A DNA stretch of 36,450 nt from Nemertoderma westbladi (taxonomy: Eukaryota > Animalia > Xenacoelomorpha). The notes under the pieces are model-generated. The model did not search any database. It was not told the DNA's origin and saw only the letters and a program-made list of their open reading frames with translations. The translations under genes and the position numbers were made by a program. Shown one piece after another: positions 2,199 through 27,792 of the stretch (position 1 is its first letter; each line of letters begins with the position of its first letter). Location of the stretch: contig JAUCBJ010004981.1 of assembly GCA_032718475.1 (NCBI GenBank), forward strand, positions 1 to 36,450, written 5' to 3'.

Positions 2199-3000
2199 CC
2201 CAAATTTTTCTACAAATCTTTATCATATTGTTTGAAATTTGAAACACAACTAGTTCAACTCACCGTGGTTGTTACAATGAAGCCGGAATTTTCTATTTCG
2301 CCTTTAAATTTTATTGATAAGCGTTTTAAAAAAGTGTCTTTTGCGAAATCCCACCCTCTGTATCATTGCCATTCTTCACTTTAGTCGTAATTTTTTCACA
2401 TCAATAATAGAAAGCTTGCGTTGAAAGGATTCCAAATATGTAGCAATATCTGAATTTCGTTGAGAAACAGCTGAGAAATAGGCATTCAAAGATTGCAAGA
2501 ATTATTGTTCACTGCAGGCCATTTATTCCTTTTAATAAATACACAATATTCTAGAACGTGTTATTTATTTTATGAGTTGGTATACAACAGCGGTATGCCT
2601 ATACAATATCTATATTGCCTTGCTAATCATACATAAACAAATTGTTCCAGAATATTGTGTATTTATTAAATAGAATAAATGGCCTGCAGTGAACAATAAT
2701 TCTTGCAATCTTTGAATGCCTATTTCTCAGCTGTTTCTCAACGAAATTCAGACATTGTTACATATTTGGAATCCTTGCAACGCAAGCGTTCTATTGATGT
2801 GAAGAAATTACGACTAAAGTGAAGAATGGCAATGATACAGAGGGTGCGATTTCGCAAAAGACACTTTTTTAAAACGCTTATAAATAAAATTTAAAGGTAA
2901 AATCGAAAATTCCGGCTTCATGGTAACAACCACGGTGAGTTGAACTAATTGTGTTTCAAATTTCAAACAATATGATAAAGATTTGTAGAAAAATTTTGGG
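2199..3000. repeat. Long inverted repeat (foldback): arms about 2199-2557 and 2644-3000, 86-bp spacer
   Basis: The arms are reverse complements, >90% identical by eye. This is why ORFs 2142..2384(+) and 2814..3062(-) translate almost identically. Probably derived from a non-autonomous DNA transposon. Confidence 0.9.
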
Positions 3001-3185
3001 TTGGGGTCCGTGTCATCAGAAAATGACACTATATTACGGGTCATGGTGTATATAAATAGCATTCAATAATTCTGCGAAAAATATTAATACTAATAATGTC
3101 ATAGTGATATATACTATAGAACATGTTAGCTATTTTAATACTACTTCAAATAATATTATAATATTCAAATAATAATTTTAATGCT

Positions 3186-5254: not shown

Positions 5255-6293
5255 AGTACGATGGTTCGACAACATTTGTGTCTACTGTTGACGGTGACAC
5301 AGAACCATTTGAAGTGTTATGGGGCGTCCTCCAAGGAGACACACTTGCACCATTCTTGTTCATTATTGTGGTTGACTATGTTCTACGCATGTCCTTAGAT
5401 CATCATAATGATGATGGGGTGATGATAACTCCACCTACTGGCTCCAGAAGTTGATGAAATCTTGCCAAGTACCTAACTGATCTAGACTTTGCTGATGACT
5501 TAGGAGTACTCTCAGAATCATTAGAGGGAGCCCAACGGCTCCTCGGCTCATTATAACATGCTGCTTCTAGTGTTGGTCTTTTTATTAACTCCAGAAAGAC
5601 CAAAATTTTGACAGTTAACTTTGAAAGTCCTCAGCAAGTCTCTGATCGGATGAGCATAAGCTCAAAGGATGGTATGCTTGAGCATGTGGACGACTTCTGT
5701 TACCTGGGATCATGGATCCAGAAGTCAGGTGAGTAATATGTAAGGGAAAGGCATGGGCAGCCTTAAAGAGGCTTTCCAGGATTTGGAAGTCACCGAGAAT
5801 TAATCGGAAACTTAAGGTCCGATTATTTAGAGCAGCAGTAGTTCCAGTACTCCTCTACGGGAGTCCATGCTGGGCTCTAACTGCTGAGGACACCAAATCT
5901 CTGGATGGCACATTCACAAGAATGCTACGCCGGGTTCATTGTGTCAAGTACAATGCACACATCTCCAACCAGACACTATATAACATTGGAGGTGTCTCAT
6001 TGGTTCCCTCAAGCTTGACACTAGAACAAAATCGCCTCCGCTTTGTAGGACATTGCTTTCACCATGAGGACCAGCCAGTGCATAATCTTGTACTTTGGCA
6101 GCCTCATGGTGTGAATAAGCATGGTGGACAGCCCATGACTTTCTTGAGACGCATCTTTAAGGACACTGGCCTTGAAGATGTGGATGATCTAGCAAATGTT
6201 ATGGGTGATAGGGAGTTGTGGCGGTGCAATTTTGTTGACCGGCACAGCATTCTTAAAAATGCAGCTGCAATGCAGCATGCCGATCCTAGTAGT
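5255..6293 (+). mobile_element. 5'-truncated RTE-clade LINE (C-terminal RT to 3' tail) with target-site duplication
   Basis: GVLQGDTLAPFLF, DLDFADD, GLFINSRKTK, DFCYLGS and RLRFVGHC, with stops and frameshifts. Ends in a TAGTAGTA tail. Flanked by the direct repeat TTTCTCTCC at 5246-5254 and 6296-6304. Confidence 0.9.
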
Positions 6294-6680
6294 AATTTCT
6301 CTCCCTGGAACATTGGAATTATGTGGAAGATCTGAGTATCTGCTGTATCAGTGTCAGTTGGTATTGTTTATTGTTTTGGTTAAAAAAAACCGATACTGTA
6401 ATCTGCTCCTTTCCCTTAAGTTAAATTAAATGAAGTTTTTAAAGCCACAAAACACATATTTGGTGAATTGCGCCATTAACTTCTCGAGGTACATCACAGG
6501 TTAGTTTTTGAAGCCTGTGTTTCGCTAATTACTACAGTATGATAACCTCTGAACAATTATTATCATAAAACAAGTTAGATGACTATATCACAATCAATAA
6601 ATTAATTGAATTATTATTAAATTATTGTTTCTTATGATTAATTTCATATGATAATATAATTATTTATTTTAAATATTCAG

Positions 6681-6922: not shown

Positions 6923-8399
6923 GTATGATACTGAACCAGGGTATTCTAAACAACAGCCCTGGCAACCTACTAGAACAGTAGTGTTTACCGTAATGCAGTA
7001 CTATGCATTTTTAATGTTCATTCTTAAATAATAATAATGATAGTTTGATAAAATGTAGGTTAGATAGTTGCTGCTTAATTATCCGACACTTCCCTGGAAG
7101 TATCACCAAACAGGCATAAATAATTTAATCCCACCTGTTGTTGATTGGCTGACTGGCAGCTCATGCTCAGCCATGTATCATTTACTAGGCTGTTCATGGC
7201 GGTCTTCTTAATCATGTACGGTATAATTATTGTTTATGGTTGTCTGGTCTAATCACTGAAACATTGGCATACTTATTAGCCATTTGTGGTGGTCCCTAAC
7301 GTGCTACGTGAAGACCACTGCTTCAGTTTTTACTGTATGCTGTTAAAATTCTATATACTGTGTACAAATACTGCTATATTGTAAAAGGCGGGAAATTCAA
7401 ACAACAGCTGTACCGTTACTTTTGTTCATTGTGTCTTACTTATCTGTATATATAGAATAAAGGTTTTTGCATTCAGATTATTTCAGTTCAGCATTCACAC
7501 TGTCGTATCCTAACCCTCAGGTACTGATCCATTACACATTACACTAATTAATTAGCCTAATATTGTATTTACCCAGTAGAGTATATTAAGACCAAGGTGC
7601 ACATAGCTGGAAAGCTATAAACAATATTATAATAATGTACATTGTTTACTGCAGTTGAAAATACACCTGTCATTCTAGGCTTCCAGTTTTCTCTAGCACT
7701 CCTGCGAACATTAAGTTTTCTAGGCCTACATGTGTAAAATATTTTTGTAATTAATTTCATATGTTATTTGTAGATATTTATTTTACTACTACAGTTACTA
7801 CTACTTGGCATCTCACTGCTAATTAAGGTTCACCCAGGCAGAGTTGGATAGTTCTGAAAGAGGACAATTATCGAAAGCTAACAAAAGCTACTGAAAGTAA
7901 TGCGAAAATTATCGAAAAGGTTAAAGCAGGGGCGAAAGCTATCCATCTACTGATAGGGGTCACATTTTGCACTTTCAAACTTCAGACATTCATAAACAAA
8001 TAAGATATGGGCTCTAATTCAAATATTTGCCGTTTAATTTGAAATAAACCTTTGCGAAACATACTACATTCACCGATGCAGTACACCAGTAAGGATTGTT
8101 GTAATACAATGCTAGACTAGGCTACTGCAGTAGCAGTACTGGGGCCCTCCCTACTCATGTACTCTGCTACCATCAGATTCAGTCCGGTTACTGTCTGACC
8201 GCATGGCGGCGCATTACTGCATTACAGCATTAAGGACTGAAGGATGGCTTACAGTACAAACTGAGTACTGGTAAATTTTCCACCAATACTTAGTTATTGC
8301 CATGGTGGAAATTCCAGACGAGGTAGGACTGCAATATATGTGAGCGATTCTTTGAAAGTATCTGAATGTCCTGAGTTCCAGATTGTGGGACTCAAGAAC

Positions 8400-10940
8400 T
8401 CAAAATGGGTTAAAATTTCCAGATCGGGATCCAAGTCCATTATTATTGGCTCAATTTACCGCACAGATGCTGTATCTCCAACCGATTACTTAACCCTATA
8501 TAACGCTACGCTCAACAGACTTACTGAAATAAACACAATAATTACTGGTGATATAAATATACAGAAGTATACCGAAGGAAAATAGATACTATAGCAAATA
8601 CAGAAGGATTATACTAATTTACTGAACTCCTTTGGATATATAAAAATTCTAAACCATCCAACTCGCGTTGATCCTAAGTTGATTTCTGCAACTCTTCTAG
8701 ACCACATAATTACAAACATTACTACTGCAGTTTCGAATGCTTTCAATTGCAAAATAGGTAACTGCGATCACCACTCGACTTTCATCATCCTTCAAAAATT
8801 TATTGTGTTTATAACAATCCAAAACCTCGAACATCTTATGACTTTTCAAAATTCGATGCTAAACGCTTTCTTCGGAATATTAATTCAACGTCCAATTGGA
8901 CTTACATGGACGAATCAATTCCTTTGCATTTAAAATTTGACCACTTTTACAAAGACTTTACGAAAATATGTACTGACAATTTACCTACTAAAATTTATAA
9001 CCACAAAAATCGACCGATTAAACCTTGGATTAGTGACAGCTTACTCAAATCCATTCACACAAAGGACAAACAAACTGTTCCTTCTAAAAAATAAAACCGA
9101 AACCAATCACTAATTGTTCACCTTTTACCGTAACTGACTAACATCAACTCTGAGAGCAGCTGAAAAAAATATTTTTTTTCAACAATTTGACAATAACTCA
9201 AACAATATTCGCAAAACATGGTTTATCATCAATTCTGTTTTACAAAAATGTTCATCGAGATCATCTCCAAAAAAACTAGTCATTAAAACTGATTCGGACA
9301 CAAAAATTATATCTGATCCTCGGGAGATCACTGATGCCTTTAATTCATATTTTGCAACAGTAGGTTCTAAACTGCAGAATACTTTACCTACCAGAAAGGA
9401 AACTTCACTGGTTGAACTACAGTATAGAATTCTTCACCTTAAATTAAATTCCAGTTCCAATGATCCTTTTCCTCCTAAACTCACTACAATAGCAGCTGAA
9501 CAGCTTTCTCCCCATTTATGTTACTTATTTAATATTTCAATCTCTGCTGGCTTCTTTCCCAACTCCTTAAAAATTACCAAAGTTATTCCTCGTTTCAAAT
9601 CGGATGACCCTTCTGACGCCAACAATTACCGTCCCATATCTCTCCTTCCCATTTTCAGCAAAATTCTAGAACAAATTTTAGACGAACAATTACAGTCTTA
9701 CCTTTACAAATACAACCTAATCACTAGCTCTCAATACGGCTTCCATCCCAAAACTTCCACTTCGCATGCGATAAAATTTCAATATGATTTCAATTGATTT
9801 CAATATGCGAAAAAATTTACACTATGCTCGACTCCTATCAGACAACTTGTGCAGCTTATATTGACCTTAAGAAGGCCTTCGACACTGTAGACCACAAGAT
9901 CCTTATAAAGAAACTTGATCCCTATGGTGTTAGAGGTATTCCTCTTAAACTAATTTCGAATTTTCTATCCAATCGGAACCAATTTGTTTCAATTGACGGC
10001 ATTAACTCTACTTTATTACCGATATCATGTGGTGTACCACAAGGATCTTGTCTCGCCCAAACACTCTTCCCCATATTTCCCCACCTTACTTAGCACACTT
10101 TTTGTCGACGACACAACTCCACTCAACTCCCATTCAAACATTGACCTCCTAGTCTCTACCACAAACAACGAACTTTCAAAACTCAATGACTGGCTAACTG
10201 ATAACAGACTACTCCTTAATTAAAAAAAACACGAATACACCATTTTTTCCAATATTACCACTACAAACAAAATCAACCATCCAATTAAAATCAATGATAC
10301 CGAAATTAAACAAACCGCACAAAATTATAACATACATAATATATAATAGACACAAAATAATACAAAATTACTGGGTATTTGGTTAGATGATAATATGCAA
10401 TGAAAACACATACTAAATACGTACTTAAGAAAATTATAAATCTACCAGTATCTTTTATAAACTTCAGCATATCTTTCCTTTTAACATCCTCCGAACTCTA
10501 CATTTTACACTAATTCATCTTTACAACAAGTACGGTATAATACTATGGGGTAGTTCCAACTCTTCTTTACTTAAACCACTGCGCACTTAAGTTAACAAAC
10601 TAATTCCTTGTATTACCTTTTGCTTTTCACACTACCGGGCTTCCTCATTACCCATATACAAACAACTTAAAATTCTACCACTCAATAAACTCTACGAACT
10701 TTCCATTGCTACTTTTATTCACAATATTCACTCAAAATTTATAAGTACCACTTCATTACTTAGTAAACTTTTCCAGAAATGATCCACAATTGACAACTAT
10801 TACACTCGCTCCTCCGCCCGTAGTGATTTTACCATTCCACTTTTTCACCTCGCTTCTTCTCAACGTTCCGTGAATTTTCGAGGGCCAAATAATCTGGAAC
10901 TCGGTGCCCCTCGAGATACGAACCAAAAAAAGTCATCCTT
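8400..10940 (+). mobile_element. Degenerate, 5'-truncated CR1/L2-group LINE ORF2 (APE plus RT)
   Basis: Motifs across frames: IIIGSIYR, ITGDINI, PTRV..SATLLDHIITN, KPWISDSLLKSI, NYRPISLLPIFSKILE, QYGF, IDLKKAFDTVDH, YGVRG, GVPQGS and LFVDDT. Many frameshifts; boundaries approximate. Confidence 0.88.
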
Positions 10941-11085
10941 CATTCATAGCAGCATTTAATTTGAATTTAAATTTTGAATTGAATTTTAAGACTATGACTT
11001 TTCAACAAATTTATAGAAAAATGATCATCCTCAACATCATTAACCAACAATCAAAATAGTATTCGTGAAGCAATCCACCAGCACC

Positions 11086-12303
11086 TGTAAAAGCTTTTGT
11101 GGGATAACTGATTCGTTTGCCTTGTTGGCCAGTTCCCCCCCGGTCGCTAGAATACTCTAAAGGGGATCTATAGTTAAAATAGTGCAAGCTACCAGCTTAT
11201 TGGCTGATTTGCTGTACGCAGGTATCTGGGCTCTGTTTAATCGGCCAACCAGCCTAAGAAGGTTGCGTCATAGCCTTGTTTTGTATCTCCCAATAGAATT
11301 TGAGTTAGCCTTGATTTTGACCTATCACAGAGCTACTGAACTGAAATTTTCCTATCTCACTGCTCTTTCTCTGTGTTGAACGGGAGCTTCGTGGAATAAG
11401 GGTAGTTGGTATCCTCGTATAGAGCAGTAGTCACGAGTTTTTCAAAGCCACGAAAGAACGGCTTTGTAGTGTTTTGTGCTTTCTGCTTTTTAGCTCAACA
11501 CTAGTAGGTTTAATTATAAGGACATATATCCTTTAACTCATGGAAACTCATGGAATCACTGATCTGTGAATACTGCTGACACACGGCTTTTAATAACTGC
11601 TGAAACTGCTAAAAATTACCTGCTCAATCAATACTGTATACTGCTATTTGTTGTCGGTTATTCATTATATTTGTTGATGAATTATTATATTGGAATAACG
11701 AGAAATAACCCCGACACCCAATATTCTTGATATACCGAAGGTAAGAGAGAAAGGTTACCAATAACGATTGTGACTTATGTTAAAGTGGTTTGAAGTGAAT
11801 CTAATGTTATTTGATAGACCCTACATGAGTCAGTCTGTGTTCCTTTTATATGTGACTAAAATCAGTGAAGATTGGCAGATTAGTGTGCAGTATTGTGCAG
11901 CATTGTGTATGAGTGAGTCTGTTAAAGAAGCATTTCCTAAAGAATGCGCTATATATGTGAATTATAATTAAGCCATATCGTTGTGAGTAGTTTAAGTCAT
12001 AACTCTGTTTATATAGATAAAGCGCCACGTCCTAAAGGAACTGTTAATATTCCCGAAGGTGAATAATATTGTCAGAGATTATATAATACTGTCAGTCGAA
12101 TAATACATTAGGCTTACATAGCAATAAAATTAAACCGTCGAACCCAATCTCCCGGGAATATCCAGCGGGTGAATGATCGCGCACAGATTGGTTTCGACTA
12201 GTGTAGTGAATCAAATACTTCTCATAGGCTAAAAAGCGATTTAATATCTAGAAGACATCTTAATTTGGCGGGTTAAACTGCCAAAGGTCTGAAAGCGCGA
12301 ACA
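11086..12303 (+). repeat. 5' LTR
   Basis: TGTAAAAGC...GCGCGAACA; direct repeat of 21537-22754. I found only two substitutions by eye (about 11243 G/A and 12221 C/G). AATAAA at 12123-12128. Confidence 0.97.
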
Positions 12304-12315
12304 TTAAAGGATATA
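12304..12315 (+). promoter_or_regulatory. Primer-binding-site position; non-tRNA sequence complementary to the element's own LTR
   Basis: TTAAAGGATATA directly follows the LTR-terminal CA and has no TGG. It is the exact reverse complement of TATATCCTTTAA at 11525-11536 and 21976-21987. Confidence 0.6.
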
Positions 12316-12382
12316 GCTTCTTTATTGCAGTAAGCAATAAAGTTGAAAGTACCGGTCAACCGGTAAACCTGAAAGGTACATC

Positions 12383-12497
12383 TGTAGGTCAGTAGGCCCA
12401 ACTGCCAGAACCGGTACTGCCGTAGGTCCGTAGGTCCAACTGCCAGAACCGGTAATTCTGTAGGTCCGTAGGCCTAACTGTCCTAACCGGTACTTCC
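12383..12497. repeat. 38-bp tandem repeat, 3 copies, in the LTR-element leader
   Basis: Unit approximately YGTAGGTCCGTAGGYCCAACTGCCAGAACCGGTA(N5), starting at 12383, 12421 and 12459. Confidence 0.9.
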
Positions 12498-12676
12498 CGT
12501 ATAAGTACATTAGTATTATTCGATTTTGATAGTTATATACCGGTAGGCCTTAATAATTAATCAGGGACTGCAGCCCTGGTTTTTTATTGAGATTTTTACT
12601 TATTTCTGTCAAGTTTTATTTGTTTGTAGGCCAGTATTGAACAGAAGGCGTGTAAGCCTGATCAGATTGTACAGAC

Positions 12677-13240
12677 AATTTGTAGGCTGAGCTGTTGTCT
12701 GATTGCTGTTAAGTCTGAACGGATTGCAGTGTGTGTAGATCATCTGTCCGATTAAGTACGGTTAGGAAGTAGGGGCAGCGAATGCTGTAAGGTAAACCCC
12801 CAACTAAAGAATAAGTCGTACTACTGGGTTAGAACGCATACTCCCTAATCATTTCGGAGTCTGCATGTCCTGTAGTTTATTTAGGCTTGAGAGTAGTCTG
12901 CCATCGTTTAGTCTGTACTTTGTTTGTGTAAGTCTGTACGGGTAGCGTATAATTTTATTTAGATAATTTGTAGGCTGGATAGTTGTCTGGCTGTTATTAG
13001 GCCTGAGCGGATTGCAGCGTGTGTAGATCACTTGTCCGATAAAGAACGGTTAGGAAGTAGGGGCAGCGAATGCTGTAAGGTAAACCCCCAATTAAAGAAT
13101 AAGTCGTACTACTGGGTTAGAACGCATACTACCTAATTATTTCGGAGTCTGCATATACCGTAGTTTGTTTAGGCTTGATAGTAGTCTGTCAGTGTTCGGT
13201 CTGCATTTTGTTTGAGTAGTTTGTACGCGTAGCGTAATAT
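12677..13240 (+). ncRNA. Tandem pair (period about 288 nt) of a structured cis-RNA module: long G.U-rich stem topped by a near-invariant core
   Basis: Units start at 12677 and 12965. Stems of 12, 29, 10, 5 and 12 bp can be drawn, and substitutions between the copies preserve pairing (see findings). Family unknown. Confidence 0.65.
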
Positions 13241-14180
13241 TTATTATTCAGAGTTTATGCGATTATTCGCAACATTCATTCCCCAAGTTTGTTCCTACAG
13301 TAATTGTGTTTGTTATACATACCGCTATAGTTAAATTAACCCCGGTACTACACGGGCTGCTTGGCGTAGGTAAAGACTGGTGATTTTGTGCATCGGTCAC
13401 TCCAGCAGATGCCGTGGTTCTTTTAGCTGTTCAAGTATATTTAACTACTGATTATCTGTTGTACAAGTACTCGTACCTAATTTAGGGTTTAGTGTACAGT
13501 GCTTTCCGAGAGTAATTAGTGTAGGCATTATATTTGTGTTGTAAAGTGGTTGATAGGCACGTTCGATTAGCTCTATTAACTTCTAGGTAGGAACACTCCG
13601 TGATACATAACGTAGAACCTATAGCGATACGGCTATAGGTCGTCAGGCGGTGGTATTTTCCTATCTAGACAACGCAGTGTATTTACTACTACTTATTATT
13701 TCAAATACCGCATTACCCTGTCCGTTGTAATAACCAGAATTCTAACCCTTTGTTAGGCTGGTTTGTAGACTTCTTGTAAAATTACCCTAAAAATTCGTAT
13801 TTTGTGTTTTGTAAATTTTTATGTTTATTTAGAGATTGTAATCTCACCCGAATTGTATGTAATTTGTAGTATTAAGTAACTTAGGTAAATTATAATTATT
13901 TGTTTTAGTGTCCTATAAGTAACACCTCACTGAAAGCGCACCGCTTTGTGTAGTGATTACTCCCCAGAAATAATAACATTTATTTCAAACATTGACTAAA
14001 CCCATTAAAACGGGTATATATATATTATAAATCAAATCTAACGATTTATAAACAGTAGGCCTACCATATAACCATTAGGTCTCAATATCAGTTGGACTAC
14101 TGCTCAAATAACGGTAATAAAGTAAGTAGAGTAACCAAGTAACCCTAAAGTTCAGAAATTCAATTATTTAAAATAATTGA

Positions 14181-14395
14181 TATACCGGTATTTATGATAG
14201 GCCTATTATCTTTATTTCTATAAATTTAGGCTGAAATTATACCGGTACTTGTAATTAATTCTAGTCCAGAATTATATATACTACAAACTGTAAGCTGTAT
14301 ACCGGTATTCCCGATAGGCCTATTATATATTTATATATATTTGTGCTAAAATTATACCGGTATTCTGTGATAAACCTAGTCTGTAATAATACTTA
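14181..14395. repeat. Degenerate tandem duplication of about 117 bp in the LTR-element leader
   Basis: TATACCGGTATT..GATAGGCCTATTAT...AAATTATACCGGTA..CTAGTC recurs at 14181 and 14298. Confidence 0.75.
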
Positions 14396-14602
14396 TCAAG
14401 CATCTTTATCATTATCATTATCTCTTTATCATCCTTATCATTAGCAATTATCTTAAGCATACCGGTATTTAATATATTATATATATCACGCTACACTGAG
14501 TAGCAGTATCGGTAATTAATTACTAGGCTAGCAGTTAATACTGAATTACTAGACTTGCTCAGACTGTAATATAGCAGTAGGCATTCAACTGTACTCACAA
14601 AT

Positions 14603-17600
14603 ATGTCTGATACTAAGCAGAACCTGTCAGACAGTCTATTAGATGTAACTATCTGCGACTCAGATAGAGGTGTAGAACCCTCTAGTCGTAAGTTCAGTTC
14701 ACCTCCCACTGTGAGGAAGGTCATCCCTCCAGTAGTAATAACAGAACCTAGGCTAGTCCAACATCGTAGGTCTATCATAGGCACCCGAGCTCAGGTCAAG
14801 CGGGACCAAGAAGCAGCGGAACAGCAACAACCCGCGAGTCAGGAGCTTGTTACTCAGCGGCCCAGCAGCTCCAGTAGTGAGGATACTGTAGAGCTGACAC
14901 CCGAGCGCGGAGCAGAGATGACGGATGCGGTTTATACGGATCCCCTTCTCATCCTTCCTGCAGCCGTACTCACTAGGTTATTGATCGCGGTGGAAGAACA
15001 CCAGATCGATTGGGCGAGAAGTCAACGACCAACTAGAGATAGTTATGCGGGATACACGAGGGAAGAATTGAAGTCTATTGTCGAGTCGCAATGGAACTTC
15101 CCCGGACCCGGACTCCCGTTTGATTTATCAGAAGCTGCCTGGGAAGACATACACCGGATGGGAGTAGCCAAGGAAACCATCGATCCAGCTGTGTGGAAGA
15201 GGTCCGCAGCCGGATACGCACAGGGATTCTTCAGCTCTATGGAGCGAGTAGAAAAACAACTGTTTAAACAACCTCAAGGACCTCAAGAGCAGGGACAGCT
15301 GCTTTATCAAGTTAGAGAAAGAGTTCTGCGGATTAGGCTAATCTTATCCGCCTTTGAGGAGGCTTCTAAAAGAAAACAAGACACGTCGTTGCAAGTTGCC
15401 GTAAAGACTTGGTTTCAACGGGTGAGTCGCCAGGTTCAAGGAGCAGCTCAGTGGAAAGCTCAGTTGGAGGAGCGCTCAACCCATGGAGAATCAACAGACG
15501 CTACTTTTTCCCAAGTGGAAAGTGAAGCGACGGCAGAGAAACCGCATAAGAAGGATGCCATTGACATCTATCTGTCAGACTATCAGCGTTTTTTAGGAGA
15601 TGACGAGTTGAGGAGAAGGCTGGAGGGACTTAGCCCTAACAGCGAAGGAGCCAAACTTGTGTTAGATGCAATTGATGTGGATAGGTTAGCGGCGAACCAA
15701 GCTAAATTCGATGAACAACTCCGCATCGCCAAGGTTCAAGAAGAACAAGTAAAGAAAAAACGTATAGAAGATAGAAAGACAGCAGCAGCGGCAGTGGCAG
15801 CGGCAGAAGCGGAAAGAAAGGCAGCAGAGGCAGCGGCAGAGGCAAAAGCGGCAGCTGCAGCAATGAAAGCGGCAGCGGCAGAAGCGGAAAGAAAGATAGC
15901 AGTGGCAGAAGCAGAACGGAGGGCATCTGAAGAGACAACCCAACTAGAGTTGGAAAATCTTCAAGAGAGGCAAGATAACTTTAATAAACAGTTAACAGCT
16001 AGTAATATGCAGATGATGAATCGATCTACTCCCAAACGACAAGGTTATACATCATCTGAGGAAGGCGATACCACCGACACTGAAGGCGGAGGAAATCGAT
16101 CCCGCCTAAGCAGACGTAAAAGAACATTCCACCGTCAGAAATTGCCTGATTTGCCTCCAGCTGTTAGAAGGCAACTAAATAACACCAACTTAGAGAGTAC
16201 AGAACCCACAGACCAAATAATTACAATAGAAAGACTCCCTACTATATTAGATGAGCCTGAAATAAGTAGGCCTGTTCTTGAAATCACCCCTTCGGTAATA
16301 GATACACCTGTGCTCCCTGAAGCTACCTATAAATTCCCTCTGCATAGCACTAAGCTACCTGTGCCCCGTAGAACTGCCCAGGAGACAGTTCAGGTCCTGG
16401 ACCCCGAGCGAAATATTCCAAATTTGTCGCCCGTTGTCCCTCGTCTGCCCGCTACGACGTTGGCGGATCCCGTTTCGGCGGTTGATTGGGTAGACGAGAG
16501 ACGGCGGGGGATGGATATTCTCCTCGGAGAGATGAAGGAGAATCGGATACGCTCCTCCCAACAGGTCCGAGAGTTGGAAGGGACTGTCCAACATTTAAAG
16601 GGAACAGTGAGAGAAAGTAAGTTAGAGTTGCAAGAAGTGCAGCAAAATATCGCGCTAGAGCGCGATAAATTAGTAAATTTACAAAAGGGTATACCACCAC
16701 CCCCTGTAACAATGTGTCAACCCGTTAGGTCTGAAGTATCTCATGCGCAAGGTGTGGAGCCTACACGCATTTATACTGCTAGCGAAGTAGAAACTCCTAT
16801 AGTGAACCCTATTAAGGGTAATTATAGACCTGTTGATAATGATATTCCATATAGAACTGATCATAATCCGAGAAATTTATATACCGATAACTCGATATTA
16901 AATAACACGATGGCCCAAGAAAGTTTTACGCGTCAAATGGCTAGAACCGAAGCCCGGCAAGCGGTGAAGGTGGGAGAGATCGTCAAGTTCAATGGAGATG
17001 AGATGAAATGGTTACCTTTTAATGAATTTTACAAAGATAACATACAGAACTCTGTACTATCTAATGGAGAGAAACTAAGATTCCTCATCGAATGTTTGGA
17101 AGGACCTCCCAAGTCAATGGCGTTAAAATTTATTGGACATCCAGATGGATTAAGACAAGTTTGGGATACACTAAACATCAGGTATGGTAATAGGACTAAC
17201 ATAGCTAGGTATTTATATGCGAAATTAATGGCGCCCTGAAAGTTTCTTAGCAGCGGGATTATAGAGTTTTCCGATGAGATTCAGGAGATCTGTAGACAAC
17301 TAGATTGGTTAGGTAAGTCTCATGAATACCAGAATTCTATGGTTGTAGGAGCCTTAGCATCTACTTTGCCCAAGGGTGGAGTAGGTACACGCTGGGACAA
17401 GAAGGTGTTATATATGATGGAACAACAACAACGAGACCCTACCATGGCTGATCTCATGTCATTCTTAGATGGAGAAGTGAAATTACAGCTCCTAAGACAG
17501 TCCAGAGAGAAGACACTGGAAAACAAGGTAAGTGAGAAACCCGTCTCCAGAAGAAAGGTAACACCAGTGTGTTATACCGACGATGGCGAAAGCCAAGCTT

Positions 17601-18559
17601 CCCAAGGGGAGGATAGCGGGAAAGACACTGAAAGATCTTATTATGTCAATAAAATGCCTAAAGATCAGGTAAGTAAATCCAAGTCTCGACCCAATGACAG
17701 AAGGGAACCGGTACAAAAAACCCTTCCTACGTCTCCTAAAAGAATTCAGGTGAGAAAGCCCGAGGAAAGAACAAGTGTGCACCACATAGCACAGGTTAAA
17801 GTAAGTAACATCAAGCCGAAATGTGTGTTGTGCGACGGGCCCCACCGTTTAAATGCGTGTGATAAATTCCTGAGGAAATCACTCGAGGATAGACGTGAAG
17901 TCATGTGGGATAAGCGGTTGTGTTATAATTGCCTCAGACGAGGACACCAACGGCGAACCTGTAACTCCGACGCAAGGTGTGCAAAGTGCGGCGCAAAACA
18001 TCATATCTTGTTGCACACGGAATTCGAACGAAACAGCCCGAGTCAGGTAAGTGAGTCCGAACTACATGTCCAATTCAGTGATGTGAACGACACTGATCAA
18101 TCTGAGATGGAAGGATTCTATACGGACGAGTTCTCCGACCAAAACGAATCCTGTTACCTAATAAACACCACCGCAGTGTATCGAGTACTCGTGCATGAGA
18201 AAGACACAGACAGCGACCTTACCTTAACTACTTCCGATCAACAACCATCTTGGAAAGCGCCAACTTCCAATATAGGAATCCGAGAATTTCCTGTAGTCCA
18301 GTTACGGGTCCACGGACCTCAGAAGAGCTATATAGTGAACGCCCTCCTGGACTCCGGTAGCACAGGAACATTCATCGATAAAGAACTAGCCGAAGTCATC
18401 TTTGCTGGACAACCCAAGTTCCGAACCAAGCTAAACATGTCAGGGATCATATTCGTGTTTATTGCGTACGTAATTACGTATATATTATATTTAGTGCGAC
18501 GGCAAGAAATAATTCTTTTCCTTCTTCCTTACTGTCCGTATTACATTACAAATACGTAA
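14603..18559 (+). CDS. gag: BEL/Pao Gag-protease reading frame with one in-frame TGA (17237-17239); protease truncated near 18447
   Basis: ORFs 14603..17239 and 17339..18559 share a frame with no other stop between them. DUF1759-like KFNGDEMKWLPF...EKLRFLIECLEG...LNIRYGN. Knuckles CVLCDGPHRLNAC, CYNCLRRGHQRRTC and CAKCGAKHHILLH. Protease VNALLDSGSTGTFI, after which the frame runs into AT-rich sequence. Confidence 0.9.
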
Positions 18560-18844
18560 CTACAGTAAGATGAAATGTCCGTACTTATTAAAGTACAATA
18601 AAGCCACTACTATATTTAAGTATTATTGGTAGGCAGAGTATTAGGAATGCAAAGTTCAGATCCTCGTGTCTCGGCTAAACCAAGCTCTGGGTAGACCTTG
18701 GAAACGACTTGCCTCTTCACACTGACATTGCTTCGTGCGATATTGCTCTCATACCGTATATTAAATAATACATATAGTAGCGTGATGTCCCTTTAACAGT
18801 AGCGTATCACGCAAAATAAATCTGTTAAACCCTTTGACCATCTG

Positions 18845-19122
18845 TAATTCTAGTCGATTAAGATATCGCGGCACCCACCGATATACTTGAAAGACAAATT
18901 CTAGAATCAGTGGTTAACGTCCCCAGACAAGTTCTGGAATAAATCGGTGCCCATCTCAAATATTAATTATTTAATATTTGCAAATCTAATAAATCAAAAT
19001 CTGTAAAATTCAGATCCTTCAGCAATTCTAGTCAATTAAGATATCGTAGCATTTACCGATATTCTTAAAAAGACAATTGTCATAGAATTAAGGATCTTGT
19101 GTCCCCAGACATATTCTAGAAT
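18845..19122 (+). repeat. Two diverged copies (about 18845-18940 and 19023-19122) of a hairpin-forming ~95-nt unit
   Basis: Both copies keep the ATTCTA/TAGAAT, GTC/GAC, TTAAG/CTTRA and ATATCG/CGATAT pairings, followed by GTCCCCAGACA. Confidence 0.7.
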
Positions 19123-19757
19123 CAAAATATGTCAACTTAATTATCAAATAATAAAATTTCAGGGAATAAATTTAAATTCATGCCTTTTAATGAATTTAAT
19201 AAATTGCCATTTTTACGCAATTTATAACATTCCCAAAATTCCATTAATTAATAGATCAAGGGAGCGGAGATTTATCTTATTATGTGTATGAGTGTGCGAA
19301 AGTCTCCCAAACATAGTCAATAGCCGATAAAATTCATAAAGTCATGTATAAAACAGAACATTGACTATTAAAGAATACTATTAAATAACATCCCAGATCT
19401 GTATGCATTGGAATTACCCTAATTCTACCGCTAGCTTTGCATAATGTCACCATAGCAACAACCACGCTAGAATTAGAATTGAGTTAAAAGAACAATAGAA
19501 AGCTTGTCCCATTGAATAGCATAGGGAATAAATAGCGCACTACTAGTATCCAAGGATACATAATAATACAGTGACATTCTGGAAGGCATTGACTAACGGA
19601 CAAATGGCCCGAATGTGTGTAGTTGTGACCAGTTGTGTGGTATTTGTGAGTTTATAGGTGAATGTTACTGCTAAAGTGTGTTTACAGTAGCTAGTCGCAA
19701 TCGTAAAAGTAACCTAACTCTCCAAGGAAAACCTGAAGTACATCTAAGCCTTTGGGA

Positions 19758-19903
19758 CGGACAGTTGAGTGACTTGTGCCGGTTGTCGTTGTCGTTGTGC
19801 GGCTACGTCGTTGGCGAAAGTACAGCGGCGACGACAAATCGGCGCTGAGGATCTCGTACTGTCCGGGGGTTGATTGGGGTAGGCAGCGACGCCCGCTCGC
19901 CTA
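19758..19903 (+). ncRNA. Long G.U-rich RNA hairpin (19758-19865) plus a small hairpin (19880-19903), upstream of the extra ORF
   Basis: CGGACAGT/ACTGTCCG outer stem. GTGCCGGTTGTCGTTGTCGTTGTGC pairs with GTACAGCGGCGACGACAAATCGGCGC using several G.U pairs, which work only on the + strand RNA. Confidence 0.6.
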
Positions 19904-19922
19904 AATATAAACTCATTATAAT

Positions 19923-21458
19923 ATGGATAAACTCATATATAGCAGATATGACGGAGTTGATAGAAGATGGTCTTGGTATCGGGGAACGATATACTCTACT
20001 TTCAAACGTTTGTTTATAGCTTGATACGCGGTGATACTAGTCCAACTACTACGAAGGATGATGGTCGTTATATCGAACCGCCAATGTCCCAAGAGCAGCT
20101 CACGCGTGAGTTGGACTATAAGAAATTCACCGCTCGCTATACGCATCGTAATGGTACGTATGTGGGCTTCTTAACTACTGGTCATCCTATCGATTTACAC
20201 GATACGGACAATGTCGACACCAAAAGGGAAATGGTACGATTGAAATATCCTTCCCAGCGGAGGCGGAACGATAAACCGAGAATGGAACACGAGAATTCTA
20301 TTCGAAACAGACTCGAAAGAGAAGACGTTGAGGAGCCGGATAAACGCAGCGACTTCAACGATTATCTGGAATTCCTGATAGAAACATATCTCAATATTGC
20401 CAGTCAACAAAATCTAGAAACTCGATATCCTCAAGGTATCACATCCCATGGTAGAACTCAAACGGCTCGATTCCCCTATGATGTATCTTACCGCCGATCG
20501 ACCGCTACCTGTTGTACCGAATAGCTTCGAACGGATGGAGGAATATTGTAAGCTGGAGAAAGATCACTCGCGTTTCCCCTACAAGACGTACGTTTTTGGG
20601 TATTATTACGGTAAATGCCCTAGACCCAGCCAATAAACGGAAAGACATAAACATCCACGGAAACGTTGTGTTAAACACAGTTGTGTTCGTTATATTTACT
20701 GGAGTTTCGAGCGAAACTTGTTTGACGTATCACCTATGCTCACTCGGCTCTAACGATCCTAGAGTAAACCTACGATCAGAGTCCCGGAATACTCGGTCAA
20801 ACCTCCTCATTCCTTAGTTGGACCTCAGACCTGCGATCCTGGTGGTGTCGCGGATCCTCGCGGACGGTATTCACTGTTCAAGATCTAGTGCTACCCTAAC
20901 AATTAATCGGTAACACTCCGACAGTGATTTCTAGCTAGCCGCCCATCTTACCTAGCCGGATTATGACGCAGACACCTAATATCACTATCCAACCGTATGG
21001 TCGTCCCGTTTAACGCAATACAACCCTTCATCAAGGTGAAGGAGAGCGTTGTACGAAACGAGTTAAACGCTATTCTATAAAGATCAAAAAAGAAACCTGC
21101 GTTTGTTCAGACAAACGTAAGTTATAACAGTAAGTCCAATCGATAAACGAATTGGCCTTATCTCAGTTCGATTGGGAAACCTCGAATCTCAAAGAAGATA
21201 TCAAGCTTAGAAAACCCTATTCTCTGCGAGAGTTTTGGACGAACGTATCCCATGACAAGCGGAGGAAAATCAGCTCGAGGAGAAGCATATCGAAATGGAC
21301 GAGACACCGACCGTAAACCCAAACCTTTTAATGCAATCATATTGCACCCTTCACCCAGGAGTTATGGCCCTCCTAGTAAAGTGGCTTCCCCCAAAGAGAA
21401 AATGACTCTTGCTAGCTTTAAAAAACTGCGTAAACGCCGTCCGCGCAAGAAAGACTAA
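19923..21458 (+). pseudogene. Probable decayed extra ORF of the LTR element (env position), product unrecognised
   Basis: Balanced base composition with overlapping + strand ORF pieces (19967..20524, 20448..20636, 20512..20817, 21252..21458). Ends KKLRKRRPRKKD* just before the PPT. No domain recognised. Confidence 0.45.
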
Positions 21459-21528
21459 CTGTTTAGAGTATTTTTATATTTTAGAAACTGTGATTTGGTA
21501 TATTTTATAGACTTAAATCCCATTTTCT

Positions 21529-21536
21529 GGGAGCGG
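21529..21536 (+). promoter_or_regulatory. Short polypurine tract (plus-strand primer)
   Basis: GGGAGCGG immediately 5' of the 3' LTR's TG. Confidence 0.6.
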
Positions 21537-22754
21537 TGTAAAAGCTTTTGTGGGATAACTGATTCGTTTGCCTTGTTGGCCAGTTCCCCCCCGGTCGCTA
21601 GAATACTCTAAAGGGGATCTATAGTTAAAATAGTGCAAGCTACCAGCTTATTGGCTGATTTGCTGTACGCAGGTATCTGGGCTCTGTTTAATCAGCCAAC
21701 CAGCCTAAGAAGGTTGCGTCATAGCCTTGTTTTGTATCTCCCAATAGAATTTGAGTTAGCCTTGATTTTGACCTATCACAGAGCTACTGAACTGAAATTT
21801 TCCTATCTCACTGCTCTTTCTCTGTGTTGAACGGGAGCTTCGTGGAATAAGGGTAGTTGGTATCCTCGTATAGAGCAGTAGTCACGAGTTTTTCAAAGCC
21901 ACGAAAGAACGGCTTTGTAGTGTTTTGTGCTTTCTGCTTTTTAGCTCAACACTAGTAGGTTTAATTATAAGGACATATATCCTTTAACTCATGGAAACTC
22001 ATGGAATCACTGATCTGTGAATACTGCTGACACACGGCTTTTAATAACTGCTGAAACTGCTAAAAATTACCTGCTCAATCAATACTGTATACTGCTATTT
22101 GTTGTCGGTTATTCATTATATTTGTTGATGAATTATTATATTGGAATAACGAGAAATAACCCCGACACCCAATATTCTTGATATACCGAAGGTAAGAGAG
22201 AAAGGTTACCAATAACGATTGTGACTTATGTTAAAGTGGTTTGAAGTGAATCTAATGTTATTTGATAGACCCTACATGAGTCAGTCTGTGTTCCTTTTAT
22301 ATGTGACTAAAATCAGTGAAGATTGGCAGATTAGTGTGCAGTATTGTGCAGCATTGTGTATGAGTGAGTCTGTTAAAGAAGCATTTCCTAAAGAATGCGC
22401 TATATATGTGAATTATAATTAAGCCATATCGTTGTGAGTAGTTTAAGTCATAACTCTGTTTATATAGATAAAGCGCCACGTCCTAAAGGAACTGTTAATA
22501 TTCCCGAAGGTGAATAATATTGTCAGAGATTATATAATACTGTCAGTCGAATAATACATTAGGCTTACATAGCAATAAAATTAAACCGTCGAACCCAATC
22601 TCCCGGGAATATCCAGCGGGTGAATGATCGCGCACAGATTGGTTTCGACTAGTGTAGTGAATCAAATACTTGTCATAGGCTAAAAAGCGATTTAATATCT
22701 AGAAGACATCTTAATTTGGCGGGTTAAACTGCCAAAGGTCTGAAAGCGCGAACA
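21537..22754 (+). repeat. 3' LTR
   Basis: 1218-bp copy of 11086-12303, followed by the TSD GCACC. Confidence 0.97.
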
Positions 22755-22940
22755 GCACCCCCCCCCCCCCCCCCCCCCCACCCCATTCCCCCCATTCCTG
22801 TCCCTCTCCGAAAATCCTTCCCACCCCTAATCCTGCTGTCTATTGTGGCTCACCCCAATAGCACTAGCTGCGCTATTTGTTGCGGTGAGTTGCTGAACCA
22901 ATTAAATTTTTTATTATTTTTTTATATACATTGTGCATGT

Positions 22941-24473
22941 TATAATATATTGCTGTATGTGCAGCAGAATGAAATAAATACAAATATATTGGTATTCAAG
23001 GGATAGTGCAGTGGTGAGGCCTACAGGTTTTACTATCGCCGTGTTATCAGTACTAGAATCGAATATTGCTTTAAAAATATTATAAGAGTTTTTAATGAAT
23101 AGACCATCATCAATGCTGTAATGCGCCCCCACATGGTCAAGGGGGTAGCTGGTCTGATGGTGTAGCAGGGTAGGGACTGTAGTACTAGTAGCCTACTGGT
23201 AATCAAGTAATGGAATGCAGGTCAGACCTAATGAACAAGCCTAGCACTCTTGTAGTTTAGAGAGAGCTTACTCTTCGTGAATTAATATTTCGCGATGGAA
23301 TATTTGAATGTAAAAGGGAATTATTTGAATTAAAGCCCATATCACTTTTGTTTATGAATGCCATCGAACAAAGAAAGTGAGAAATGTGCACCCTATCAGT
23401 GAATGGATATCTTTCACCCCGACTTTAACCTTTTCGAATTCTTTCAGTAACTTTTGTTAGCTTACGGTAATTGTCATCTTTCAGAACTATCCAGCAGAGT
23501 TTCTCCCTCCCAAAAAAACATTTTTTAGGAGAGTTTAAAAATGGCTCTGCAAAATAAGGAAAATTGTTAATGTAACGCAGACCAGTATATGAATTGCGTT
23601 AATTTATATATTTATTTCTAGTTGATTAATAGTTACCAAAATATATACATGTAAAATTACTACATTGACCAACATCTAAATAATTATTTATTAAAATATT
23701 CAAGCAGCCACTTTACAAAATCATTTTAAATACAACAATTTAACAACGTCAACAACGCATCTTTCAACAACGTAATCTTCAACAATGTATTTTTGCAGAT
23801 TTATCTGACAAACAACACTGACCCAGCACTCCTCAACGGTCTTGGTGGAAGTGTTACAACTCCTTGTGGGACACTAACTGGCAACAATGTGGATTTAATT
23901 AATTGCAAAGGTGATGTTGGACGATATGTTGTTTTCTTCAATGATAACGGCCAGATCCAAAACTTTTGCGAAGTAAAAGTGTTTAATACATTCCATCCAT
24001 AAAAAGCATACGATTACGATTATAGCATATTTATATATAAGCCAAACTTATCTAACTATCTAACTATTTATTACAATTAATTGTTTGACTACAGTATTAC
24101 ATCAAACGTCAAAGAAATTAAATTCATTTATGGAAAAACTTGAGATTTATTATACAACCTTATGAAAAACTTTCCTCAACGATATAGCATAATCGTAGTG
24201 CAGAACTACTTCTATTTATTTGTTGGTGCCTATGAGAAGTGCGGAATAGCGAATAATATCGAGTAACATCCACTCTAAGTCCGTAATCTACGAATCAATA
24301 TGACCACAAGATTGGGTATCGTCAGTTTGTATCAGTCTTGTTTAAACGCTTAGTAACCAAAGAGTAAACAACAAAAATAAAAATTATAACTAAAATAATA
24401 AATACAGAGGATAATCTATTTATGTGTCACATTTCATGCGATCTTATTAATATTAAACTAAATAAAACAGTAA
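22941..24473. repeat. Segmental duplication, copy 1 (about 1.5 kb; copy 2 is 30121-31640)
   Basis: Collinear, with a few SNPs and small indels. Contains the MULE right TIR, the lectin terminal exon and the 3' UTR. Confidence 0.95.
23799..24002 (+). CDS. Terminal exon, C-terminal half of the F-type lectin domain (copy 1)
   Basis: ttttgcag|ATT, phase 0, matching the donor at 6922. Translates IYLTNNTDPALLNGLGGSVTTPCGTLTGNNVDLINCKGDVGRYVVFFNDNGQIQNFCEVKVFNTFHP*, with the C..GRYV and CEVxVF motifs. Confidence 0.92.
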   Translation: MYLTNNTDPALLNGLGGSVTTPCGTLTGNNVDLINCKGDVGRYVVFFNDNGQIQNFCEVKVFNTFHP

Positions 24474-25246: not shown

Positions 25247-26358
25247 TCGAATGAATTGGGAATTCGTTTTGGGTTAGCCCATATTTTTGTATACATTGAC
25301 TAAACTAAGAATAAATAATAATAATATAACAGGTACATTGGATGAACGAATAGTTACCTTAGTTAATTCAAAAACTGTTAATGTTCTAGAATATTCTACC
25401 AAATGTGTAAAAATAACCAAATAATTTTGTTTTCGGAACATTTTAAACAAATTATATAAATAAAAAGTACATAAACATAGCTGCCGGAAAAATACCTAGA
25501 ATAATTTCCTAGAAAGGATCATCAGGCACAATGATTTGTCTTTTTCTGACAATTGTGGGATTTTTATTAAATAATTAAATACACAATTTAAAATAAATAC
25601 TAAAATTCCAAACGCTTTTCGGCATTCAAACAATCTGTCTGCTTCGGGATAGGCTGTTATAAGTTGTCAAGGTAACTTAATGTGATTATTAATATAATTG
25701 CAGTTAATGGGCCGCTATGGTTTAGTTGCAGATTTTCCTGTTGGTTTGAACATAAAATCAATAAAAAATACACTGAAAATTTTTACATTTTTTAACAAAA
25801 AAATTAGATTCGGCATATAGATAGCAGAAAATATTTGTTCTAGAACATTCATTTATTTTTTGAACATCGGGATTTCTGTAGCCCTACTATTCTTTTCCAA
25901 CAATTATTCTCTATACCAAATATTTGTTGTTTATACTTTTTGACAAAATTGTTAATCGTATTTATTAATGATTAATTAAATCTACCTGAAATAATTACCG
26001 AGTCATAATAACAAAAATGGCAGGAGGTGTTGTCAGAGCGAAGTAGTACCAAAATAAGAGTCGATTTCGGAACTCTAGCCATTTATCATAATTTATCAAC
26101 AAATTATTATGATACTTGAAGTTATTTATGTTAAATAAAATTCATAAAAAAAAACTAAATTAAAAAATTTTCTAATTATAGAACAGTAGCTATCGGTACC
26201 ATGAAAAAATATTAGCTAATGTCTCTGAGAAGGTAGAATTAATGTTCTAGAACAAAAATACCTCATAGCTATTAGCATTTTCAATAATATTTGGTCAGAA
26301 AAATTTGATACAGAACTTCTAATTGAGACTTTTGAACGGATATTCAACTAAATCAAAT

Positions 26359-27792
26359 ATGTTATCAAAAACATATTCGGCATCAATTATGTTATCGAAA
26401 ACGTCTTCGGCGTCATATTATTCAGCCAAGGAAAGTTTACCTCCGAATGAAGAAGAGATTATACCGGCCCCGGAGGAACCACAGCCAGTCCCGTCTGTCC
26501 CGCGCAGAAGGAGAAAACGGACATCGGTGTTGAAGCGATTGTGGCGATACATAACAAGCCATGGACCCTGTTTCTGGTTCTGTAGGGCCTTCATTGCTCT
26601 CTGTGTTCTTAGTGTTCTTTACGTGCTGGTGAAATTAGCGATGGGGGATGATTTAAGGAAAGAGAAGGTAGTTGGGATCCAGACGGTTGGCACAGACAGG
26701 GATCGATACCATACGACTCAGTGGATTGGAGAGACCGAGGGTTATAGTACAGATATATCAGCCACTGACAGTACCACTGGTACAGGGATACCAGCCACCG
26801 ACAGTACCACTGGTACAGAGATATCAACCAACGACAGTACCACTGGTACAGATATATCAACCAACGACAGTACCACTGGTACAGATATATCAACCAACGA
26901 CAGTACCACTGGTACAGATATATCAACCACCGACAGTACCACTGGTACAGAGATATCAACCACCGACAGTACCACTGGTACAGATATATCAACCACCGAC
27001 AGTACCACTGGTACAGGGATATCAACCACCGACAGTACCACTGGTACAGAGATATCAACCACCGACAGTACCACTGGTACAGGGATTACAGCCACCGACA
27101 GTACCACTGGTACAGGGATTACAGCCACCGACAGTACCACTGGTACAGGGATATCAACCACCGACAGTACCAGTACTACTGAGGTTTCAGCCACAACAAC
27201 GATAATCTCCGAGAAGGATGACTTTTATCGGTCGTTTATCGACTGCGATAGAAGTAAAAGAGAATGCGATCCCTATGATCCTGAAATATGCGATAAGCCG
27301 ACAGAATCCGATCAATATACCGTCGATATCGTACACCCACTCGAATATGCAAGAACTAACGACAAGAAACTAAGATGCGATCGCGATTGGATCATATTTT
27401 ATAGACGTATCCCCAACTCCAGCAGCAATAGTAACCAGTACCAGGTGGGGTTCGGAGATTCCAAAGGAAGTTACTTCCTGGGCCTATTGAATATGCGTTA
27501 TCTGACAGAGGATAGGGTATGTTTTATGAAGATTGAATGTGGTACAGCCACGGTTTTATACGGAAGCTTTACTGTGGGGGGTGCCGGTTATCCTCTAAAG
27601 ATTACAAGTTATTACAATGAGTCCAATACCGGTGTATCTGCTAATGAAAGAAACTGCGATCTCACTGTTTACAACAACGAGGGGTTTGATTTAAATAAAG
27701 GATGGTGGAATGGCGGACCTCCCCCAAGTGAATGGGAAACAAAAACTGAAACTATTGAGATGAAGGTGAAATGCAAGAAACCAGTCGTGTGA
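26359..27792 (+). CDS. Intronless type II membrane protein: cytoplasmic tail, TM helix, Thr/Ser mucin-like stalk, divergent fibrinogen-related domain (FReD); 477 aa
   Basis: First ATG at 26359. Basic RRRRKR..KRLWR precedes hydrophobic FWFCRAFIALCVLSVLYVLVKL. Thirteen 11-aa repeats follow. FReD motifs: CDRDWIIFYRR, YQVGFGDSKGSYFLGLLNMRYLT, YGSFTVG..YPLKI, GWW and EMKVK. Confidence 0.85.
   Translation: MLSKTYSASIMLSKTSSASYYSAKESLPPNEEEIIPAPEEPQPVPSVPRRRRKRTSVLKRLWRYITSHGPCFWFCRAFIALCVLSVLYVLVKLAMGDDLRKEKVVGIQTVGTDRDRYHTTQWIGETEGYSTDISATDSTTGTGIPATDSTTGTEISTNDSTTGTDISTNDSTTGTDISTNDSTTGTDISTTDSTTGTEISTTDSTTGTDISTTDSTTGTGISTTDSTTGTEISTTDSTTGTGITATDSTTGTGITATDSTTGTGISTTDSTSTTEVSATTTIISEKDDFYRSFIDCDRSKRECDPYDPEICDKPTESDQYTVDIVHPLEYARTNDKKLRCDRDWIIFYRRIPNSSSNSNQYQVGFGDSKGSYFLGLLNMRYLTEDRVCFMKIECGTATVLYGSFTVGGAGYPLKITSYYNESNTGVSANERNCDLTVYNNEGFDLNKGWWNGGPPPSEWETKTETIEMKVKCKKPVV
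26749..27177 (+). repeat. Coding 33-bp tandem repeat, 13 copies (TxIS/TxxDSTTG)
   Basis: Unit ACAGRKATATCAACCACCGACAGTACCACTGGT, in frame. Three units carry N-D-S glycosylation sequons. Confidence 0.95.

Follow-up and report, generated by a model that had tools for sequence, protein, structure and literature searches.

A young BEL/Pao-derived LTR element without pol in Nemertoderma westbladi, related by deletion to a longer family and carrying a putative self-priming signature

The window analyzed here is a 36,450-nucleotide stretch of Nemertoderma westbladi DNA (Xenacoelomorpha; assembly GCA_032718475.1, contig JAUCBJ010004981.1, positions 1 to 36,450 of the forward strand), in which positions 11086-22754 are occupied by an 11,669-bp long terminal repeat (LTR) element derived from the BEL/Pao superfamily. 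An original prediction, made from the letters of this DNA, had described a recently mobile element that carries gag and lacks pol. The two TG...CA LTRs differ by two substitutions (11243/21694 and 12221/22672) and no indels over 1218 bp, their identity ends exactly at both LTR borders, and GCACC stands on both sides as a target-site duplication (TSD). The predicted near-identity of the LTRs and the exact 5-bp TSD are thereby borne out, and together they support a young insertion. TG...CA LTRs with a short TSD are features of BEL/Pao members, as is a polypurine tract, ~10 nt long in the family and present here as GGGAGCGG. The longest stop-to-stop frame in the leader upstream of the gag frame is 75 amino acids (Table 1).

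Table 1. Features of the element, with positions in the window.
Feature	Position	Strand	Basis or remark
Left TSD, GCACC	11081-11085	n/a	Flank comparison
5' LTR, 1218 bp, TG...CA	11086-12303	+	LTR alignment
Putative self-primer, exact reverse complement of 12304-12315	11525-11536; 3' LTR copy 21976-21987	+	
Only AATAAA within the LTR, candidate poly(A) signal	12123-12128; 3' LTR copy 22574-22579	+	Motif search
Primer-binding position right after the 5' LTR, without TGG (complement of tRNA CCA)	12304-12315	+	
Leader, 2.3 kb; 38-bp repeat x2.9 (12384-12494) and 288-bp repeat x2 (12672-13252)	12304-14602	+	
Gag, first 878 codons: ~790-amino acid N-terminal extension, then start of DUF1759	14603-17236	+	
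In-frame TGA, residue 879, inside DUF1759	17237-17239	+	
Rest of Gag with three BEL-type Cys/His knuckles (17822-18016) and N-terminal part of the aspartic protease (LLDSGS, 18344-18361)	17240-18448	+	
Deletion joint, 2 bases common to both sides	18449-18450	+	Contig ends
36-codon hydrophobic tail created by the deletion joint	18449-18559	+	Kyte-Doolittle
3' region, 3.1 kb, without pol remnant	18451-21536	+	
186-codon frame	19964-20524	+	Without detected homologues
Short polypurine tract GGGAGCGG, 7/8 purines, abuts 3' LTR	21529-21536	+	
3' LTR, 1218 bp, 99.84% identical to 5' LTR	21537-22754	+	LTR alignment
Right TSD, GCACC, runs into a poly-C tract	22755-22759	n/a	Flank comparison

The gag-protease frame that starts at 14603 spans 1318 residues when its single internal stop is read as X. 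Read this way, it contains a DUF1759 domain at residues 796-924 (Pfam, E 5e-13) and three Cys/His knuckles at residues 1074-1138, all downstream of the stop; the triple Cys/His knuckle is a hallmark of BEL-type Gag. A hidden Markov model (HMM) of Gag built from BEL relatives matches the element at E 4e-49. A search of 1.84 billion representative sequences with the gag-protease protein returned 11,366 matches at E <=0.001, and Peptidase_A17 or DUF5641 was present in 17 of the 19 long best matches scanned. Judged by DUF1759, the three knuckles and the pol domains of these relatives, the element is BEL/Pao-derived, in agreement with the original prediction. The protease motif LLDSGS lies at residue 1248 and homology is lost 36 residues further on. 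The break, predicted near 18447, is placed at 18449/18450 by loose contig ends.

The in-frame TGA interrupts the DUF1759 domain ahead of all three knuckles, so the window copy, as read from its frame, cannot make a whole capsid-nucleocapsid protein, and the proposal that the element "keeps a capsid gene" fails for this copy. The stop is a minority state in the family. In contigs of related copies from public sequencing runs (hereafter X with a number), aligned over 17150-18700, a base other than that of the window at 17237 accounts for 95.4% (X3), 92.3% (X4), 100% (X5) and 100% (X7) of contig depth. Programmed read-through, as in Tj1, was rejected given the position of the stop inside a capsid-like domain and its absence from most family contigs. 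No long relatives of the first 878 Gag residues appeared among 7976 candidates of 1538-4390 amino acids, in what was a weak search, and the best score of the Gag N-terminus in an Atlas search, 0.77, is a lead at most. Within the N-terminal extension (14603-16987), an Ala/Glu/Lys-rich repeat occupies 15782-15916, and 0.5-0.9 kb of the extension is skipped in some family copies.

Downstream of the protease stub, three kinds of search agree with the predicted absence of reverse transcriptase (RT), RNase H and integrase. Pfam gave no RT, RNase H/Peptidase_A17, integrase or DUF5641 in the five plus-strand element open reading frames (ORFs) of at least 100 amino acids that were scanned, the only hit being a sub-threshold protease match. 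With two BEL polyproteins as queries, tblastn at E 10 matched gag and the protease start and no pol downstream. HMMs made from 12 full-length BEL polyproteins, one each for RT, RNase H, integrase and DUF5641, scored below 0 bits for the best domain in all 24 frames of the LTR, leader, gag and 3' region, 18450-21500 included, where RT or integrase matches would have contradicted the original prediction. As positive controls, 37 degraded 60-residue pieces were searched, of which the models found 10 for RT, 8 for RNase H, 8 for integrase and 0 for DUF5641, leaving this last model without a positive control. Because pol is absent from its sequence, the window copy cannot move by itself. Of the protease-RT-RNase H-integrase order typical of BEL/Pao, the window copy retains no more than 36 residues counted from the protease motif, making placement by RT impossible; by its domain content, the element is a defective derivative of a BEL/Pao family and not a complete member. 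The joint fuses the stub to a tail whose Kyte-Doolittle 19-residue maximum is 1.52. The 20 frames of at least 30 amino acids in 18451-19600, tail included, span -0.68 to 1.98; the hydrophobicity of the tail is within the range of neighboring AT-rich frames, and a membrane anchor made by the joint was rejected as chance.

The size of the missing stretch can be estimated from relatives. In eight of the nine in which the protease motif was located, 1254-1291 residues follow it, versus 36 in the window element. Approximately 1,225 codons (~3.7 kb) would thus be missing at the joint, pointing to a parent of ~15.4 kb, and the lost stretch would have encoded RT, RNase H, integrase and the remainder of the protease. 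Contigs from public runs differ from the window on both sides of the joint. After 18444 or 18450, contigs leave the sequence of the window and enter sequence absent from it in three runs from organisms A and B (2 in X3, 3 + 2 in X4 and 2 + 1 in X5); conversely, contigs from three runs of organisms A, B and C reach 18449 from sequence absent from the window (3 in X4, 2 in X5 and one, with 110 letters, in X7). Because of these differences on both sides, we conclude that the window element is related by a single deletion to a longer, still existing family member. In X4 and X5, the five and three departing contigs compare with roughly 7-10 that cover nearby sites, which fits a dominant long form. 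In X3, only two contigs leave at 18450, whereas typical variant sites are supported by 20-56; this would fit either a short form that is common or contigs that are simply short. That depth is equal on the two sides of the joint was rejected as proof of a dominant short form, since the long form contains both sides too, and a dip in depth at 18450-18501 is no finding, as similar dips occur elsewhere. Metagenome contigs and viral contigs yielded no related loci.

The family is abundant. Parts of the internal region are present in seven public runs from four studies, under three organism labels. Summed depth over the element reaches 1e5-1e6 in X1 and X3, versus 58-78 in the left flank, and single X3 contigs have depths of 9,679 and 9,251, versus 19-34 for flank contigs, a rough 270-500-fold excess. 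Contig depth is not copy number, and the figures suggest a family of hundreds of copies. The contigs fall into a near group (95-99% identity) and a far group (86-88%), that is, subfamilies ~12-14% apart. Selection was assessed at 50 listed gag-protease sites, using the best-supported variants only, excluding the stop site and taking 0.286 as the neutral synonymous share. Differences shared by subfamilies comprise 17 synonymous and 11 non-synonymous changes (P 0.0004 versus neutral). By these counts, purifying selection is acting on the family, and nothing firm can be said for the lineage of the window copy.

The element carries a second unusual feature at the start of its internal region. BEL/Pao elements use an 18-nt primer-binding site for the 3' end of tRNA-Arg or tRNA-Gly, and their replication is called poorly understood in the ICTV profile (PMC8742986). 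No such site was found here, and TGG is absent from the first 27 bases after the LTR. The 12 bases at 12304-12315 are instead complementary, 12 of 12 and at offset 0, to LTR positions 11525-11536. A published screen for self-priming plant elements uses at least 10 bp of complementarity to the LTR starting 0-5 bp after the 5' LTR (PMC6317226), a range that includes the pair found here. Among 5000 dinucleotide-shuffled versions of the LTR, 4 gave a match of at least 12, the true position gave the only 12-nt match among 9196 mock internal start positions, and the pair is the longest of three perfect inverted repeats of at least 10 bases in the LTR plus 60 bases. The putative primer lies 600 bases upstream of the only AATAAA of the LTR. 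LTR cover goes up at the bin that begins at 11540, and in X3 two contigs of divergent LTRs follow the window as far as 11535 before departing; both observations fit a conserved block where U3 meets R. The transcript would then begin with the putative primer or close to it.

We consider it quite probable, from the complementarity and its position, that reverse transcription of the element is self-primed by its own RNA in the manner of Tf1. Some points weigh against such priming. With a transcript start at or before 11510, pairing of the primer stretch with 11921-11974 is predicted instead. The predicted primer helix also forms in 12/12 loop-shuffled controls; folding therefore adds no support and was rejected as evidence. 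A tRNA fragment (tRNA half) may serve as primer in its place. A primer made by splicing is not needed, the match being contiguous. In longer RNAs, the imperfect inverted repeat of 11507-11537 with 11921-11974 would be a competitor of the primer site, and it might hide the copy in the 3' LTR.

Our preferred reading, at a rough probability of 0.55, is that the window element is a deletion derivative of an abundant, longer BEL/Pao family, inserted recently with the proteins of full-length relatives, and that its gag is a leftover rather than a kept function. The locus has intact LTRs, TSD and polypurine tract and one joint with a 2-base overlap, and other copies differ from it on both sides of that joint. 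An earlier copy would have lost the ~3.7 kb, either to template switching during reverse transcription or to end-joining. A transcript with all cis signals would then have been packaged and copied by the Gag-Pol of a full-length relative and integrated, generating the 5-bp TSD. Minus-strand synthesis, a step proposed on the letters of the element alone, would be primed Tf1-like by the first ~12 bases of the RNA pairing with 12304-12315, and the RNase H of the helper would cut off the primer bases. Mobilization in the pol-less form seems likely.

The order of events could be reversed: a full-length autonomous copy would have inserted recently, and the 3.7-kb deletion and the gag stop would have arisen afterwards at the locus, making the joint unique and the copy dead. 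We hold this to be unlikely. From the two LTR differences, 7.6 (0.9-27) substitutions are expected in the internal region since insertion. The run that matches best contains 81% of sampled words, so that ~0.7% of the internal region (some 60 sites) is unmatched, above the interval of the LTR clock. Most peculiarities of the window copy therefore seem older than the insertion. If they mostly predate the last jump, the stop is probably older too, and a parent with a stop ahead of its protease would have needed help in trans. A later origin would also have to fit the large deletion, the nonsense change and several small indels into the time in which the LTR gained two changes in 1218 bp. The few departures in X3 hint that many contigs run through the joint, weakly so given the shortness of X3 contigs.

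Several observations count against our reading, and some of them favor loss after insertion. A comparison with X3 gives 15 near-private sites among 40 listed, a number within the 0.9-27 of the LTR clock, so a post-insertion origin is allowed. The contigs behind the 0.7% figure drop rare variants and come from other individuals, and gene conversion, or polishing of the assembly, may have raised LTR identity. The gag differences peculiar to the window copy are not clearly neutral, with 10 synonymous and 12 non-synonymous changes (P 0.07; P 0.39 versus the 17/11 class). The lost stretch is represented by contig ends of up to 110 letters only, and we infer its pol content. Of 4254 pieces, 28 are listed, and not one of these crosses the joint with 31 letters on each side. 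The 2-base overlap suits end-joining repair, and the frequent departures in X4 and X5 would also be expected if long forms prevailed and the joint were private.

The original prediction had gone further and described a dedicated parasite that keeps its capsid gene. Recast as an amplified pol-less subfamily that holds Gag under selection, like TR-GAG or BHIKHARI elements, with this locus as a member that has since lost Gag, the proposal looks doubtful to us, and for the window copy the dedicated parasite finds no support, since its gag is broken by a stop absent from most family contigs. At 17237 the gag of the family is mostly open, differences between subfamilies are biased toward synonymous changes (17/28), loose ends at the joint are few in X3, and there are precedents (PMC6466679, PMC12067270, PMC4350172), all of which speak for such a subfamily. 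Full-length copies would explain the synonymous bias equally well, however, and the Gag of the window copy ends inside DUF1759 while a useless protease stub is retained, as a raw deletion would leave it. Longer relatives also exist on both sides of the joint, unlike the situation described in those sources for the partnerless TR-GAG1 and Bik-1.

Far less credible is an assembly artefact, in which the joint or the LTR identity would reflect a mis-join, or a collapse of the two LTRs, in a very high-copy repeat. Family depth is very high, the right TSD runs into a poly-C tract, and neither the joint nor the insertion site is spanned by any of the 32 pieces listed in the element-wide contig alignment. 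Set against this are matching TSDs at both ends, two differences between the LTRs, a clean single joint with a 2-base overlap, and a left flank covered by low-depth X3 contigs with 0-7 differences. The boldest picture is that a ~15-kb, very high-copy BEL/Pao family self-primes over a loop of 770 nt and has given rise to an amplified pol-less subfamily with the joint of the window and a mostly open Gag, a counterpart of IAP 1-delta-1 and BHIKHARI; we offer it as a long shot.

In its LTRs, a DUF1759 Gag with knuckles, a gag that continues in frame into the protease, a short polypurine tract and a 5-bp TSD, the element resembles BEL/Pao members (Belpaoviridae, Semotivirus; PMC8742986). It differs from them in the missing RT, RNase H and integrase, in the missing 18-nt tRNA-Arg/Gly-type primer-binding site, in its ~790-amino acid Gag extension and in its length, which is 11.7 kb without pol and would be ~15.4 kb in the parent, versus 4.2-10 kb in the family.

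The TR-GAG elements of plants are shorter than 4 kb, have one gag ORF with a Copia or Gypsy Gag, and by definition occur in at least two copies; for TR-GAG1, no autonomous partner is reported to have been found (PMC4350172). They share with the window element the LTRs, a gag, the absence of pol, a 5-bp TSD and the need for Pol in trans. The window element differs in its 11,669 bp, in a gag interrupted at 17237-17239 and followed by a protease stub rather than a single Gag-only ORF, and in the existence of longer relatives. The element thus departs from TR-GAG in length and ORF structure, and the novelty of an animal analogue is reduced by animal precedents. Among these, zebrafish BHIKHARI-1 and -2 are likewise recently active LTR elements with gag and without pol (PMC12067270). 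They belong to the Lokiretrovirus lineage and are described as several copies with intact Gag and no pol-bearing copy in the reference, whereas the window element has a broken Gag and longer relatives. Mouse IAP 1-delta-1 and ETn are closer in origin, as internal deletion derivatives of active families that are mobilized in trans, with a deletion that fuses the frame to new residues (PMC6466679). For IAP 1-delta-1, however, amplification as a subtype is proven and its fusion protein works in cis, and the fused tail of the window element looks like chance. Further precedents for non-autonomous LTR elements in animals are MaLR in mouse (PMC6466679), defective BEL-Pao elements with LTRs in mosquitoes (PMC7642597), non-coding LTR elements in Culex (PMC3286476) and non-autonomous Troyka in sea urchins (PMC12440569). 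The literature searched yielded no amplified BEL/Pao family with gag only.

For the putative primer, the likeness is to Tf1/Tf2/Tj1, Tf1/sushi and Tcn1 (Ty3/gypsy) and to TAR (Ty1/copia), in which the sequence after the LTR is complementary to a stretch inside the LTR and a tRNA-type primer-binding site is missing (PMC4600332, PMC6317226). The window element belongs to another superfamily, its loop between primer and site is ~770 nt, and the pairing is predicted here from its sequence. Self-priming in BEL/Pao was not found in the literature searched, which included few subscription journals; Repbase or GyDB entries may note it.

The non-coding regions of the element had been described as large and structured. 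They are large, and the structure is weakly borne out: 5 of 34 non-coding 200-nt windows fold with z <=-2.5 (20 shuffles per window), versus 1 of 4 in gag and 0 of 5 in the flank. Just after the joint, 18550-18956 is highly kept across runs, more than gag, with 1/151 differences in X7, 4/336 in X4 and 2/339 in X5. This segment is a candidate cis signal, and nearby folding windows at 18850 and 19050 have z of -3.1 and -3.8. Further downstream, 19600-21458 has a GC content of 45% and a CpG observed/expected ratio of 1.2-1.3, versus 0.7 in the flanks, and copies differ there, with small indels close to 20441 and 20879 as well as several skips. For the 186-codon frame in this region there was no Pfam family, no homologue among 19 candidates of 102-326 amino acids and no usable Atlas match, with low recognition, and an env-like gene is not claimed. 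The idea of a single long second ORF disrupted by frameshifts was given up once the stop positions in the three plus frames had been read. Rfam gave three matches at E 0.26-0.84, all far below gathering scores and attributable to chance.

Elsewhere in the window, two 1.5-kb direct repeats (22946-24473 and 30128-31640), 95% identical and without TG...CA ends, enclose 39-bp and 38-bp minisatellites and a 489-codon intronless frame on the plus strand (26323-27792). The frame encodes a hydrophobic segment, 13 copies of an 11-amino acid Thr-rich repeat and a divergent fibrinogen C-like domain that matches tenascin (E 4e-5) and has no Pfam match. The repeats may have arisen by tandem duplication, or they may be part of a non-autonomous element that carries a host gene. 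A 154-codon minus-strand frame at 28820-29284, without Pfam match, resembles the C-terminus of a Tc1/mariner transposase. At 588-6335, 394-bp inverted repeats (588-981 and 5907-6297) surround pieces of a long interspersed nuclear element (LINE), with endonuclease and RT on the minus strand (3146-5085) and a LINE 3' part on the plus strand; an 800-bp foldback lies at 2198-3000. Two further decayed LINEs, with endonuclease and RT matches, occupy 8265-10093 and 32369-36193, and a 30-bp minisatellite lies at 33369-33843.

A young LTR copy with its pol deleted is ordinary, and gag-only LTR families have already been described in animals. Were the joint present in many copies, it would add a helper-parasite pair in the BEL/Pao superfamily. 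The added value of this locus is a family with a self-priming signature, so far described for Tf1/sushi, Tcn1 and TAR. As read from the complementarity, the signature in BEL/Pao is clean, testable and of moderate interest. With its abundance, its subfamilies ~12-14% apart and its presence in runs from three organisms, the family offers good material for a study of BEL/Pao self-priming by covariation and RNA 5' ends.

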